Sequence record: OR983334.1
Direction: 5' to 3' (one strand)
DNA: 64,000 nt
DNA from: Escherichia phage 1-6bf
Positions 28,550 to 33,231 of this stretch are shown here, piece after piece. The notes under the pieces are model-generated. The model saw nothing but the letters and a program-made list of their open reading frames with translations, had not been told where the DNA came from and made no database searches. The first letter of the stretch is position 1. Each line of letters opens with the position of its first letter. The translations under genes and the position numbers were made by a program.

Positions 28550-28846
28550 ATGACTTTAGAAGTATATAAATTCCTTTTTGTAAGCTGTTTAACTATCAGC
28601 GTTCTAGGATTTATTATTCTCAGAAACAAAGCAGCAAGCTGGGAGAGAATGTATAAATCCCTAGTTCGAGTGGATGAGATGTATAATGAGAAAGTTAAAG
28701 TAACACTTAACGATCTTATTATGCAAGTAGAGGACAGAAACAAGCGTCTTCAGAACCTCAACAATGAAGTATTACGCCTTGCTCGTGCTAATGAAGACTT
28801 GCGAGTAGCTATTGCTAAGCAGCAGGAGATTAACAATGAAGCATGA
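28550..28846 (+). CDS. Membrane-anchored coiled-coil protein (98 aa)
   Basis: N-terminal hydrophobic segment then heptad-like region (NKRLQNLNNEVLRLARANEDLRVAIAK). Confidence 0.35.
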   Translation: MTLEVYKFLFVSCLTISVLGFIILRNKAASWERMYKSLVRVDEMYNEKVKVTLNDLIMQVEDRNKRLQNLNNEVLRLARANEDLRVAIAKQQEINNEA

Positions 28847-29093
28847 TATTAATACAGCCCCTGTAGTCAAGCAGCTGAAAGATCTGAAGGTGGGAAGTGT
28901 TTTTGAAACTGTGCCACCTAAAAATAAATTATATCTTACAGTAAAGCTAGATTCCTCAACCGTTTATTCAGCTAGTTGGAAGTCTGATGAAAGGGTAGTA
29001 GTAGATCTCACTTCGGATAGAATAACAATGTTGAGAAAAGATACTGTTGTTCAGGTAGTTGATAATGCTCGACTTACCAATAAGGTGGATTAA
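28836..29093 (+). CDS. Small protein, paralog family A member 1
   Basis: ATG with AGGAG RBS; shares DLKxGxVF and downstream hydrophobic blocks with seven other ORFs. Confidence 0.45.
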   Translation: MKHDINTAPVVKQLKDLKVGSVFETVPPKNKLYLTVKLDSSTVYSASWKSDERVVVDLTSDRITMLRKDTVVQVVDNARLTNKVD

Positions 29094-29095
29094 AG

Positions 29096-29332
29096 ATGAA
29101 AGTTAATATTAAATCCGATCGTACAATGCTTCGCTTAAATAACATGAAGCCGGGGGTTCTGTTTGAGTCTAAAGGGTTCTTTTACATTAGAACTGACAGT
29201 CTATACGCAGAAAATTATGTGAACTGTGTTGATGTGGTAACTGGAAAGCTCATTCCTATTAAACGAGATGAAGTCTGCCAAGTACGCAGTGATCTCCACA
29301 TAACCAATATAGAGGCTAAAGATGAAGATTAA
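29096..29332 (+). CDS. Small protein, paralog family A member 2
   Basis: NMKPGVLFE..FYIRTD..VNCVDVVTGK. Confidence 0.45.
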   Translation: MKVNIKSDRTMLRLNNMKPGVLFESKGFFYIRTDSLYAENYVNCVDVVTGKLIPIKRDEVCQVRSDLHITNIEAKDED

Positions 29333-29579
29333 TCTTGAAGTAAAGGAACCGTCTTTGTGTGTTGGTGATCTCAAACTTGGAGATGTATTCCAAATCAGGG
29401 AAACACGAACAGATTTCTACATGGTTGTTCAGCTATTTACCCCACAGATTGAAGAGACCAAGCCTTCTGATGGTGGTTGTGTCGTCCTCAGTCTGACAAA
29501 TAAGCAAGTCCTTAAGCTTAGATCGAAAAGCAAGGTTGTTCTTCTTCATGATGTTATTATTACCAACAAGGGTAAGTAG
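29322..29579 (+). CDS. Small protein, paralog family A member 3
   Basis: DLKLGDVFQ..GGCVVLSLTNK. Confidence 0.45.
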   Translation: MKINLEVKEPSLCVGDLKLGDVFQIRETRTDFYMVVQLFTPQIEETKPSDGGCVVLSLTNKQVLKLRSKSKVVLLHDVIITNKGK

Positions 29580-29798
29580 ATGGAAATTAAAGTAGTTGAG
29601 ACTCCTAAATATGCAAATGTGGAAGATCTTAAAGGGGGAGATGTTTTCTCTTATGATCAAAAATTCTGGCTGATGCTAGATGATGATCTCTCTAATGGAC
29701 TACGCAGGGCTGCCAATCTAAGCACTGGTTATGTTGGTAATTTCAATCCATCAACCACTGTTATGCCTCGCCCTGATTTGTATTTGACTCAAAAGTAA
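29580..29798 (+). CDS. Small protein, paralog family A member 4
   Basis: DLKGGDVFS..FWLMLDDD..ANLSTGYV. Confidence 0.45.
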   Translation: MEIKVVETPKYANVEDLKGGDVFSYDQKFWLMLDDDLSNGLRRAANLSTGYVGNFNPSTTVMPRPDLYLTQK

Positions 29799-30297: not shown

Positions 30298-30306
30298 TAA
30301 ATAAAA

Positions 30307-30335
30307 GGCTGCCTTCGGGCGGCCTTTGTTGTTTT
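30307..30335 (+). terminator. Rho-independent terminator
   Basis: GGCTGCCTTCGGGCGGCC followed by TTTGTTGTTTT. Confidence 0.6.
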
Positions 30336-30378: not shown

Positions 30379-30723
30379 ATGAGACGCATGGTTAAAGATT
30401 GGGTCACTAAATCAGGTCTTCGTGCTGTGATTATGCACATGAACGACTCCCATTTTTGTGGATATGTAGAGCTACCAGACAGCTTAAAACATAAAAACTT
30501 CACCGGATATAACGGAAAGGAAAAGGTTTGTTATGTAAGTGTTCATGGTGGTGTCACATGGCAAGACACCCTTGAAGAGATGGGTGGTTTAAATACAATC
30601 GGATTTGATTGTGCCCATGCAGGTGATAAGACACGGTTCAACCCTAACGGGGTTCCAAGAACAGAAGCTTTCTGCATCAACGAATGCGAACAAATGGCTG
30701 AACAACTGAGAGATCTTGAATAA
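30379..30723 (+). CDS. Hypothetical protein (114 aa)
   Basis: ORF track. Confidence 0.35.
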   Translation: MRRMVKDWVTKSGLRAVIMHMNDSHFCGYVELPDSLKHKNFTGYNGKEKVCYVSVHGGVTWQDTLEEMGGLNTIGFDCAHAGDKTRFNPNGVPRTEAFCINECEQMAEQLRDLE

Positions 30724-30901
30724 AATGTCTAAGCAAACAATAAAACATACGCAAGCTGGTTACTCTTATGTCAACTCCCCTTGCTGCGGTGCTCGTATTA
30801 ATCTGGTTAAGGAAGAGGTTCGTATCGTTCAGCGTGGCGCTACTGTTGTTCGTTCATGCTGTGTCTGTGGTAATGATATTTTTATCAAAGGTAAAGTATG
30901 A
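30716..30901 (+). CDS. Small zinc-ribbon-like protein (61 aa)
   Basis: CCGAR..CCVCGND Cys pairs. Confidence 0.3.
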   Translation: MNKMSKQTIKHTQAGYSYVNSPCCGARINLVKEEVRIVQRGATVVRSCCVCGNDIFIKGKV

Positions 30902-31149
30902 AAAACTTTCAAGCTGCACCAATCACTAAAGTGATCGAAGTTGACGGTGTGATGATGACTGTTCCTCTGAACACTCGTTACATTGCAATTGACAAGATGG
31001 GTTATGTATGGGCTTGGAAGATTAAGCCTAGCTATAACGCATTGTTTGATGAGTTTGTTTGCACTGGTACGTACAGTCCTACATTCTTGGGTTTGTTTAG
31101 TGAGTTTGATGGTCAGTATAAAATCATCACTCTCCCTGCTTGTGCTTGA
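30898..31149 (+). CDS. Hypothetical protein (83 aa)
   Basis: ORF track. Confidence 0.3.
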   Translation: MKNFQAAPITKVIEVDGVMMTVPLNTRYIAIDKMGYVWAWKIKPSYNALFDEFVCTGTYSPTFLGLFSEFDGQYKIITLPACA

Positions 31150-31156
31150 GGTTAAT

Positions 31157-31318
31157 ATGTTCAAGTGGCTAAAGCGTGTCTTTCATTGTCATGATTGGAA
31201 GATTATTAATACTCGCCCTCTGGTCTATACAGATTCAGATGGGAATAACGACAAGGGCACACGTTACGTTATTCAGTGTAAGGTGTGTGGTGATGTTAGT
31301 CATCGTGATGTAATCTAA
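31157..31318 (+). CDS. Small protein, paralog family B member 1 (53 aa)
   Basis: MFKWLKRVFHCHDW..CKVCGD; below ORF-track cutoff, supported by paralogy. Confidence 0.4.
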   Translation: MFKWLKRVFHCHDWKIINTRPLVYTDSDGNNDKGTRYVIQCKVCGDVSHRDVI

Positions 31319-31327
31319 GGAATCATT

Positions 31328-31492
31328 ATGATCAAATGGTTCAAACGCTTCTTTCATTTCCATGAGTGGGAAGATCTTCATACTTATGAACTGACGATCA
31401 CAAATAAACTTACTGACAGAGAGCGACAAGGGTTGCGTATCTACTCTCGCTGTAAAGTGTGTGGTCTGCACAAGAAAACAGATCTGATCTAA
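31328..31492 (+). CDS. Small protein, paralog family B member 2 (54 aa)
   Basis: MIKWFKRFFHFHEW..CKVCGL. Confidence 0.4.
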   Translation: MIKWFKRFFHFHEWEDLHTYELTITNKLTDRERQGLRIYSRCKVCGLHKKTDLI

Positions 31493-31500
31493 GGGGTGTT

Positions 31501-31710
31501 ATGTTCTTTCGTAAGAAAAAGCCCGAAGATTCTGGATGTAAACACGAGTGGGTGATCACTGAGAACCTACATATCACCCACGCTAAAGACACTCCGGTCG
31601 AGAGAAAAGAATCTCGTGTATCTCGTATCTGTAAACACTGTTTGAAAATAGAACAGCATAAAGTTCCCGGTCATATTGGTCACGATGTAGCCATTCGTAT
31701 CTTTAGTTAA
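31501..31710 (+). CDS. Small protein, paralog family B member 3 (69 aa)
   Basis: CKHEW..ICKHCL shares the family B motif. Confidence 0.4.
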   Translation: MFFRKKKPEDSGCKHEWVITENLHITHAKDTPVERKESRVSRICKHCLKIEQHKVPGHIGHDVAIRIFS

Positions 31711-31733
31711 ACAAATCTAGCACCCTTAGCTCA

Positions 31734-32174
31734 ATGGAGGTGGTATTGAAAATAGAGTTGGAATACCCCTTCATCAATGACTGGAGGTTGGGGTATTTAA
31801 GGACAAGTAAGGATGGGAGGAGGCGTGTTGACCTATTCAATTCTAACACAGATAGGACTACGATCTCTTATGCAAGGTATTTAATGTCTTGCCATGTAGG
31901 GAGGTATCTTACTGCGGAGGAAGAGGTAGATCATGTTGATCAAAATCCAACCAATGATGAGATATCTAACCTTCAGATTCTAAGCACAAATGATCACCTA
32001 AAGAAGACCTTAGAGAACAGACCTAAGGGTGTGGTCATTACTTTGATTTGTAGTAATTGTGGCACATCTTTTGAGAGAAGGGGTAACAAGGTCCACAAAG
32101 AAAACCAAAACCATTTTTGTAGTAGGTCTTGCAACGGTAAGTATTACTGGAGCAAGGGTTTCAATAATAAATAA
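31734..32174 (+). CDS. HNH homing endonuclease
   Basis: EVDHVDQNPTNDEISNLQILSTNDH HNH motif plus C-terminal Cys-rich zinc-binding segment. Confidence 0.7.
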   Translation: MEVVLKIELEYPFINDWRLGYLRTSKDGRRRVDLFNSNTDRTTISYARYLMSCHVGRYLTAEEEVDHVDQNPTNDEISNLQILSTNDHLKKTLENRPKGVVITLICSNCGTSFERRGNKVHKENQNHFCSRSCNGKYYWSKGFNNK

Positions 32175-32277
32175 GAGCTTCTAGCGAGGATGTATCTTCC
32201 CCGCCTTCTAAGCGGTCGTTAAAGAAGTAATTGGAGTATGCAGGTTCGAACCCTGTCATCCTCGCTAGAGGCTCTTG
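32172..32277 (+). ncRNA. tRNA-like structured element (about 20 bp outer stem, internal UCU-loop hairpin and T-arm-like hairpin)
   Basis: Outer stem AGAGCTTCTAGCGAGGATG / CATCCTCGCTAGAGGCTCT; inner CCGC-CTTCTAA-GCGG and GCAGG-TTCGAAC-CCTGT; no canonical D-arm. Confidence 0.3.
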
Positions 32278-32287
32278 GAGGTGTGTT

Positions 32288-32569
32288 ATGTCATGGGGTG
32301 GTGTAATATCCTTAATCTGTATCTTCCTTGTCTGCATAGCCCTTACAGGCTGCGTACAGAGCCGTCCTGATGGATGGTGTGCAGTAGCAGTGGAAGGTGT
32401 TTGTGTTTCTCGCTGGCACAAAGGTGAGAAGGTTCCTTCTGGTGAAATTGATATGCGTTACAGTGGTATCTCATGCCTGAACGGTGCAGCAGTAGATGAG
32501 GAAACTAAAACCTTGTCAGATGCACAGTGGTGTGGTGGTTCTGTAACAACAACCGGTAAGGAGTGGTAA
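32288..32569 (+). CDS. Small lipoprotein candidate (superinfection-exclusion-type)
   Basis: MSWGGVISLICIFLVCIALTGCVQ: hydrophobic segment ending in LTGC lipobox, Cys-rich mature part. Confidence 0.4.
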   Translation: MSWGGVISLICIFLVCIALTGCVQSRPDGWCAVAVEGVCVSRWHKGEKVPSGEIDMRYSGISCLNGAAVDEETKTLSDAQWCGGSVTTTGKEW

Positions 32570-32826: not shown

Positions 32827-33048
32827 ATGAAACTAGACTCTAAGCAGTCACTTAAAACCGCTGAACTGTCCACGCTGCCAAACGGAAGTATCTTTGGTCA
32901 TGATAAACACTTCTGGATTAAAACAGACATCATAGACGATGGGTATATTACCTGTGTCAACCTTTGGAATGGTTCAGTGGATGGTTATCGCCCTAGCGCA
33001 AAGGTAGTCCCTCAGCCCGATGCAAAGGCTATAGGTTTAGTTTACTAA
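32827..33048 (+). CDS. Small protein, paralog family A member 5
   Basis: TLPNGSIFG..FWIKTDIIDDGYITCVNLWNGSV. Confidence 0.45.
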   Translation: MKLDSKQSLKTAELSTLPNGSIFGHDKHFWIKTDIIDDGYITCVNLWNGSVDGYRPSAKVVPQPDAKAIGLVY

Positions 33049-33057
33049 GGAGCCTGT

Positions 33058-33231
33058 ATGAGTTGTTTTGGTGGCGGTGAAGTAGATGACGATGATGACA
33101 TGGAATCAAACGGCACATGTCCTGATTGTGGGTGTGAGACATGGGATGGGGTTTCTGTCTACCCTGCCTGTAGTTATTCACCAGTAATTTGTAAAACATG
33201 CGGTGATCAGCCGTGTGACCAGTCTTGCTAA
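33058..33231 (+). CDS. Candidate small Cys-rich acidic protein (57 aa)
   Basis: MSCFGGGEVDDDDD..CPDCGCE..CKTCGDQPCDQSC; below ORF-track cutoff. Confidence 0.3.
   Translation: MSCFGGGEVDDDDDMESNGTCPDCGCETWDGVSVYPACSYSPVICKTCGDQPCDQSC

Follow-up and report, generated by a model that had tools for sequence, protein, structure and literature searches.

The DNA analysed here, referred to as the window, is a 64 kb (64,000 nt) stretch of the genome of Escherichia phage 1-6bf (OR983334.1). Its plus strand corresponds to the minus strand of the record of Escherichia phage 1-6af (OR983333.1; Gordonclarkvirinae, Kuravirus). Three consecutive plus-strand genes encoding proteins of 53, 54 and 69 aa lie at 31157-31710, and both the coordinates and the sizes given for them in the preliminary description are correct. 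We denote these genes p1, p2 and p3 (Table 1). The 2 kb around the triplet are 100% identical to phage 1-6af and share 85-99% identity with about 90 further Kuravirus-like phages. The genes are separated by 9 nt (p1/p2) and 8 nt (p2/p3), and the sequence upstream of p1, tgcttgtgcttgaggttaat, is conserved among the compared kuraviruses. All three products are basic (pI about 9-9.4), single-domain proteins of 6-8 kDa. A strong terminator-like hairpin, AAAGGCTGCC-TTCG-GGCGGCCTTT followed by a T-rich tail, is found at 30304-30327, directly 5' of a tightly packed gene run (30379-31710) whose last genes are the triplet; this hairpin may delimit a transcription unit.

Table 1. The gene triplet of the window, with translation signals and predicted metal-site spans.
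Feature	Position	Strand	Description
p1	31157..31318	+	53 aa; phrog_8294 member; MFKWLKRVFHCHDW...CKVCG...; CDS 16af_00102, hypothetical protein
p2	31328..31492	+	54 aa; phrog_8294 paralogue; MIKWFKRFFHFHEW...CKVCG...; CDS 16af_00101
p3	31501..31710	+	69 aa; phrog_13426 member; C-terminal extension predicted helical; CDS 16af_00100
Shine-Dalgarno GAGG, p1	31148..31151	+	5 nt 5' of ATG; overlaps stop of upstream 83-aa core gene
Shine-Dalgarno AAGGA, p2	31317..31321	+	ahead of ATG; overlaps p1 stop codon
Shine-Dalgarno AAGGGG, p3	31491..31496	+	ahead of ATG; overlaps p2 stop codon
p1 predicted metal-site span	31184..31288	+	H10-x-H12 ... C41-x-x-C44
p2 predicted metal-site span	31355..31462	+	H10-x-H12 ... 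C42-x-x-C45
p3 predicted metal-site span	31537..31641	+	C13-x-H15 ... C44-x-x-C47

Using orthologues taken from 12 Kuravirus-like loci, we calculated dN/dS (Nei-Gojobori) and counted the variable sites in the first, second and third codon positions. The dN/dS values were 0.03-0.08 for p1 (7 kuraviruses), 0.31-0.41 for p2, where the comparison was with the divergent ECBP2 allele, and 0.08-0.14 for p3; the corresponding numbers of variable sites were 3/0/11, 11/6/16 and 8/4/27. Because the genes have Shine-Dalgarno sites, low dN/dS and an excess of variation in third positions, we conclude that p1, p2 and p3 are real coding genes, read in the plus frame and subject to purifying selection. The p1-p3 ORFs are very short, and minus-strand ORFs of 78 and 60 aa overlap them, which could be taken to mean that they are spurious and that the region is non-coding or coding on the other strand. 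We regard this reading as extremely improbable and effectively refuted: the third positions of the plus frame hold most of the variation, dN/dS is well below 1, Shine-Dalgarno sequences are located upstream, the PHROG matches span the full length of the products, and 127 homologous clusters have the same length. The overlapping minus-strand ORFs are excluded by the codon-position pattern together with dN/dS. It should be noted that virion proteomics of phage SU10 identified 34 proteins, with the homologue gp105 not among them; the sample was PEG-precipitated phage without further purification, in which early and middle proteins were also detectable, and the absence of gp105 is uninformative because it is a small early protein.

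The preliminary description expected the shorter genes to be missed by routine ORF calling. This is wrong for OR983333.1, because all three genes are already annotated there as CDSs, and they are annotated in most relatives as well, but the remark does apply to some relatives. For example, p2 is unannotated in SU7 and the first copy is unannotated in ECBP2, and there is no feature under the match in the records E20-1, NC-B, PGN6866 and EcK-vB. In addition, ECBP2_0103 is a truncated call of p3, and p1 of Bas91 is annotated with an upstream extension.

A common N-terminus, M(F/I)KW(L/F)KR(V/F)FH(C/F)H(D/E)W, had been ascribed to all three proteins. It describes p1 and p2 but not p3, which starts MFFRKKKPEDSGCKHEW; the MxKWxKR helix is absent from p3, and the part that it has in common with p1 and p2 consists of the C/H-x-H-E-W core and the CKHC knuckle. 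The second proposed motif, C-K-(V/H)-C-(G/L), was indeed found in all three proteins, at a distance from the C-terminus of 6-9 residues in p1 and p2 and of 22 residues in p3. We searched the six-frame translation of the window with the regular expression [HC].H[DE]W.{20,35}CK.C and obtained three matches, which are p1, p2 and p3 only, compared to no matches in 200 shuffles.

Comparison of p1 and p2 by BLASTP gave E=8e-13, and both proteins match the family HMM of phrog_8294, p1 with E=8.1e-25 (residues 1-53 on profile positions 1-56) and p2 with E=1.5e-17 (residues 1-54). By these sequence comparisons, p1 and p2 are clear, old paralogues. A recent tandem duplication was rejected because the two proteins are merely 39% identical; furthermore, the distance from p2 to every position-1 allele is about the same. 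The position of p3 is different: it gives no direct match to the phrog_8294 profile, and its match is to phrog_13426 (E=3.9e-36, residues 2-69 on profile positions 3-74 of 78). The pairwise similarity between p2 and p3 is weak (E=1e-3). A family profile of 125 relatives, from which p3 was left out, nevertheless scored p3 at 19.7 bits (E=2.9e-5), third among the 1006 ORFs of the window. When a nine-sequence alignment of the p3 family was compared to the alignment of the p1/p2 family by hhalign, the probability was 83% (E=9e-6), and C13/H15/C44/C47 fell in the same register as H10/H12/C42/C45. With moderate confidence, we consider p3 a distant relative of p1 and p2, and all three members of one superfamily. 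The proposal of a single small-protein family is thus retained in a modified form, with two close paralogues (p1 and p2) and one distant, extended relative (p3). Both phrog_8294, to which p1 and p2 belong, and phrog_13426, to which p3 belongs, are listed as 'unknown function' in PHROGs; they are unlinked in that database, whereas the profile-profile comparison links them.

A word-indexed search yielded 11 close relatives, and an exhaustive HMMER search of 1.84 billion cluster representatives yielded 127 at E<=1e-3, nearly all of them 46-70 aa long; these 127 family clusters are representatives at 50% identity. The phrog_8294 profile was also matched by 125 of the 126 collected relatives. The family consensus can be written as MxxWLKRLFHxHxWE..(about 20)..GxRYxLxCKxCGxxKKRDLI. 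No Pfam family was detected at the gathering threshold, the best scores being those of PHD_4 (14.2 bits, cut-off 30.6) and DUF7848 (13.5 bits, cut-off 24.5), and no Pfam family was common to more than 3 of the 126 relatives. No sequence relative was found in PDB, and the sole match to the PADLOC defence HMMs was a chance-level Cas10 fragment (E=0.028).

Several other small proteins were encountered in these searches. The metagenomic relative P0130 (77 aa) combines two modules in one chain, a short CKHKY...CTKCG unit and, C-terminal to it, a complete CNHHWE...CKHCG unit, which suggests that the family module can duplicate internally. The early block that holds the triplet also contains a 58-aa Cys-rich ORF (CC...CC.C; 30725-30901) and a 57-aa ORF with about 9 Cys and an acidic run (33058-33231); their matches to the family profile are not significant (E=0.29 and 0.51, respectively), and the 58-aa ORF has no Pfam match. 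A second set of small paralogous genes, of 72-93 aa, includes a tandem run of four (28812-29798) and a dispersed copy (32827-33048). Pairwise BLASTP E-values within this set range from 8e-12 to 4e-2, so that it is a weak but real family, probably 'family A'.

We examined the conservation of the putative metal ligands in 126 family sequences. Variation at the four ligand positions is very small. The residue two positions before the conserved His is H in 101 of these sequences and C in 18, W occupies the second position after this His in 113, and all but one (125/126) contain CxxC; the median net charge is +4. In the p3 family (20 sequences), H15, C44 and C47 never vary; the upstream Cys is found at -2, -3 or -6. 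Interchange of H and C at one ligand, with the other three invariant, is the pattern expected of a tetrahedral zinc site. On the strength of the sequences and the structural models, p1-p3 probably bind zinc.

The AlphaFold model of p1 (pLDDT 79) contains a helix (3-8) and three strands (14-25, 31-41 and 47-52), with H10/H12 preceding strand 1 and C41-C44 located between strands 2 and 3. The model of p3 (pLDDT 83.5) contains strands 17-27, 35-44 and 50-56, and a C-terminal helix (61-68). The two models have the same predicted topology, i.e., a knuckle, a beta-hairpin, a CxxC knuckle and a third strand, which agrees with the distant relationship of p3 to p1, and in both of them a three-stranded antiparallel sheet carries the knuckles where they are expected in a zinc ribbon. 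The second knuckle has the form CxxC(G) in 125 of 126 sequences, and the first element, [H/C]xH, has a non-canonical one-residue spacing. No significant structural similarity to solved zinc ribbons was found. Weak structural or sequence echoes pointed to NrdR, the GTP cyclohydrolase II Zn site, ZPR1, LEF5_C-like proteins, eS26, bL32 and uS14, all of which are zinc ribbons, and a Foldseek search of BFVD returned solely uncharacterised small phage proteins, including the CR3 homologue of p3 and the entries 'LEF5_C-like' and 'NrdR-N-like'. Judging from the models, zinc-ribbon-like is the most fitting description of the fold, whose first ligand pair is non-canonical. The classical zinc ribbons (the NrdR N-terminal domain, the TFIIS/LEF-5 C-terminal ribbon and the bL32/uS14/eS26 type) are the nearest known fold group, to which p1-p3 may belong. 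The small zinc-binding fold suggested in the preliminary description is therefore still the best reading as far as ligand conservation and AlphaFold topology are concerned, with zinc binding itself a prediction.

Essentially all of the Kuravirus-like records (about 90) contain at least one phrog_8294-type gene. Orthologues at 90% identity or more were detected in 34 records for p1, 32 for p2 and 47 for p3. Vequintavirinae myoviruses of Cronobacter, Pectobacterium, Enterobacter, Serratia and E. coli carry p3 homologues with 33-50% identity, and Bruynoghevirus podoviruses, which infect Pseudomonas, encode distant members of the family in their early region. One of the latter, FJK gp12 (40.5 bits against the family profile), is a true homologue located in the early region of an unrelated podovirus group; it differs in its identity of about 36% and in having the first ligand Cys at -5. 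In LUZ24 gp12 (L026 701-1360, 220 aa), the first ~41 residues are homologous to the 55-aa FJK gp12 (L025 2498-2665); beyond this point the CxxC knuckle is lost and the frame reads on into what are separate genes in FJK, gp13 and gp14, which is either a frameshift/sequencing error or a real fusion in the reference record. LUZ24 gp12 is not among the four early proteins reported to inhibit growth (gp4, gp6, gp9 and gp11), and this absence tells little about the family. Weaker family matches were obtained in large Synechococcus phages and an Acinetobacter phage, and the metagenomic members that could be placed are on phage contigs with terminase, tail fibre or RtcB genes. Wherever the source of a family member is visible, it is a phage or viral contig. 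A DNA search of 5,426 complete E. coli genomes gave no match, nor did a tblastn search of 72,556 plasmids with one divergent member (P0023). A degenerate DNA pattern gave 120 loci on genome contigs, mostly by chance, and the single true member among them is on a phage-like contig binned into a MAG.

Comparison of the kuravirus, Vequintavirinae, Bruynoghevirus and metagenomic loci showed nothing in common except the family gene. Because there are no conserved neighbours across phage groups, function cannot be assigned through guilt by association. An 88-kb uncultivated phage contig has a gene for an RtcB-type tRNA ligase (L009 887-2158) ~4 kb from its family member; together with the tRNA-Arg gene adjacent to the family genes in kuraviruses, this is a loose hint, without statistical support, of a tRNA-related neighbourhood.

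Within the kuraviruses, the locus is highly variable. The arrangement p1-p2-p3 is found in 1-6af, SGF2, EcoN5, CHD5UKE1, TH43 and Bas91, and with divergent alleles in ECBP2; NJ01 has p1-p3 and SU7 has p2-p3, and a single, different allele is present in SU10, YF01 and two IMG/VR genomes. Between 1-6af and SU10, the position-1 gene shows only 44% identity, compared to 96% for the 83-aa gene directly upstream, and the 20 nt located 5' of the position-1 start codon are nearly the same in the two phages. In the published pangenome list of 63 core proteins, YF01 gp103 is included and its neighbour gp102, a family member, is not. Thus, the slot of the triplet is always occupied while its content is exchanged, and purifying selection acts inside each allele lineage. 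The segment 31150-32290 forms a kuravirus plasticity zone between the core genes 30898-31149 and 32288-32569. These flanks, the 83-aa gene and a Phage_lipoprotein gene (Pfam E=1.7e-36), both belong to the published core proteome. The zone contains one or two phrog_8294 genes, sometimes phrog_13426, HNH and variants of tRNA-Arg; some genomes have additional small ORFs there (NJ01_0121, ECBP2_0102).

The sequence 3' of p3 carries a homing-endonuclease cassette inside the only tRNA gene of the phage (window positions 31718-31738, 31734-32174 and 32186-32264). In SGF2, EcoN5 and SU7, an intact tRNA-Arg(UCU) is found directly 3' of p3. In 1-6af, the tRNA-Arg is reduced to its first ~20 nt (gcacccttagctcaatgga), and a 146-aa HNH ORF (Pfam HNH_3, 24.7 bits, E=1.8e-5) has its ATG within the former D-loop; Bas91 has an identical junction, followed by a different, proper tRNA-Arg. 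The downstream tRNA copy of 1-6af is aberrant, with a UCU anticodon arm and a T arm, no D arm and a 20-nt variable insert; it is closed by a 21-bp stem and reaches an Rfam tRNA score of 29.7 bits (cut-off 29) with an MFE z-score of -4.8. ARAGORN found no tRNA in the whole window. Dependence of the triplet on the HNH gene was ruled out because family genes occur without HNH in SGF2, EcoN5 and SU7 (p2-p3).

The early genes have been delineated as CDS 69-125 in SU10 (PMC4281155) and as gp82-122 in YF01 (PMC9965538), both classes being assigned by analogy with the experimentally classified phiEco32. The function of kuravirus early genes is mostly unknown and is likely to be in host takeover (PMC8948821). 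The triplet locus lies in a long block of small same-strand genes, and its syntenic counterparts, SU10 gp105 and YF01 gp102, fall within the clusters called early. By synteny, p1-p3 are thus likely to be early genes themselves.

We propose that p1-p3 are stoichiometric, zinc-stabilised binders of a host macromolecule that act during takeover. Each protein would form a three-stranded antiparallel sheet clamped by one tetrahedral zinc site, with [H/C]xH placed just before strand 1 and the CxxC(G) knuckle between strands 2 and 3, and p3 would add a C-terminal helix to this zinc-ribbon-like mini-fold. The proteins would be made in the first minutes of infection and would bind stoichiometrically, presenting as a docking surface the zinc-stabilised sheet, the conserved basic residues (K6/R7, GxRY, CK and the KKRD tail) and the conserved Trp. 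The host macromolecule targeted would probably be a nucleic acid or else a protein that handles nucleic acids, and docking would help host takeover. We infer stoichiometric binders because the proteins have ~55 residues and no catalytic motif. The binder role is suggested because the genes belong to the early cluster of virulent phages, are near-universal within one genus yet allelically variable, and move as single genes, and the charge and type of fold make us favour a target associated with nucleic acids. LUZ24 gp4 Mip and phiEco32 gp79 are likewise small early or regulatory phage proteins that bind a host factor; however, they have no sequence or fold relation to p1-p3 and are not metal-dependent, so that the parallel is an analogy only. 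Taken as a whole, and with the genuine early expression of the genes included, we give this proposal about an even chance of being correct. Against it, one can cite the lack of conserved neighbours across phage groups and the fact that LUZ24 gp12, a relative in a screened phage, is not one of the four growth-inhibitory proteins.

In addition, a variable target, for instance a defence system, would account for the sharp allelic variation no less well than a housekeeping target. The mini-proteins could inhibit or decoy a variable component of bacterial immunity, in which case the tandem copies and deep alleles would reflect an arms race at an accessory 'hot spot'. This role is possible although rather unlikely, and it stays alive because of the variable-slot pattern: a position-1 gene that has diverged far more than the adjacent upstream core gene, a copy number that ranges from the triplet through p1-p3 and p2-p3 to a single gene, the omission of YF01 gp102 from the core list that has its neighbour, homing endonuclease and tRNA-Arg variants in the same stretch, and a gene that moves alone among unrelated phage groups. 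Conversely, the retention of at least one phrog_8294 copy in essentially every one of about 90 Kuravirus-like records is more typical of a core function, PADLOC shows no similarity to a known defence component, and each allele lineage is under purifying selection. A regulatory role within the phage, in which the switch from early to middle expression is tuned by binding of the proteins to DNA or RNA of the phage or to the RNA polymerase/sigma machinery, appears somewhat more doubtful. It would agree with a basic, zinc-ribbon-like fold of a type common among binders of nucleic acids and RNA polymerase, with the near-universality of the family in the genus, and with an early-cluster location in a phage that relies on small transcription factors, e.g., gp79, for its programme (PMC8948821). 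However, single members are found in unrelated phages with other transcription strategies (Bruynoghevirus, Vequintavirinae and cyanophages), and the alleles have diverged much further than the transcription machinery, which is conserved in kuraviruses.

The location next to a homing-endonuclease insertion in 1-6af, Bas91 and YF01, together with the variable presence of p2 and p3, might indicate selfish or near-neutral cargo that is carried with the mobile HNH/tRNA cassette region and contributes little to fitness. We consider this quite improbable in view of the strong purifying selection, the family genes without HNH in SGF2, EcoN5 and SU7, and the maintenance of the family over 127 divergent clusters. 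A broader version of the counter-defence reading can also be formulated, in which phrog_8294 and phrog_13426 would constitute an unrecognised superfamily of zinc-clamped inhibitors of defence or of variable host factors. These would be single-gene cassettes swapped at a fixed hot spot between core genes, beside the homing endonuclease and tRNA-Arg, and spread by single-gene transfer to Bruynoghevirus, Vequintavirinae and cyanophages. We put this version forward tentatively, as an unlikely one.

The p1-p3 genes are an ordinary case of phage "dark matter", because databases already list their products as hypothetical proteins and PHROGs has clusters for them. Small ORFans that contain Cys and His are frequently seen in the early regions of phages, and the finding is of little importance in its present form. 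The modest gains are that two PHROG families are joined in one predicted metal-binding superfamily with the signature [H/C]xHxW...CxxCG; that this family, for which Pfam has no model, comprises at least 127 clusters at 50% identity, with phages and viral contigs as the only sources seen here; and that in kuraviruses highly conserved core genes flank a slot whose family-gene content varies sharply. If p1-p3 are indeed effectors of takeover or counter-defence, the family would annotate many small phage genes that are now blank.
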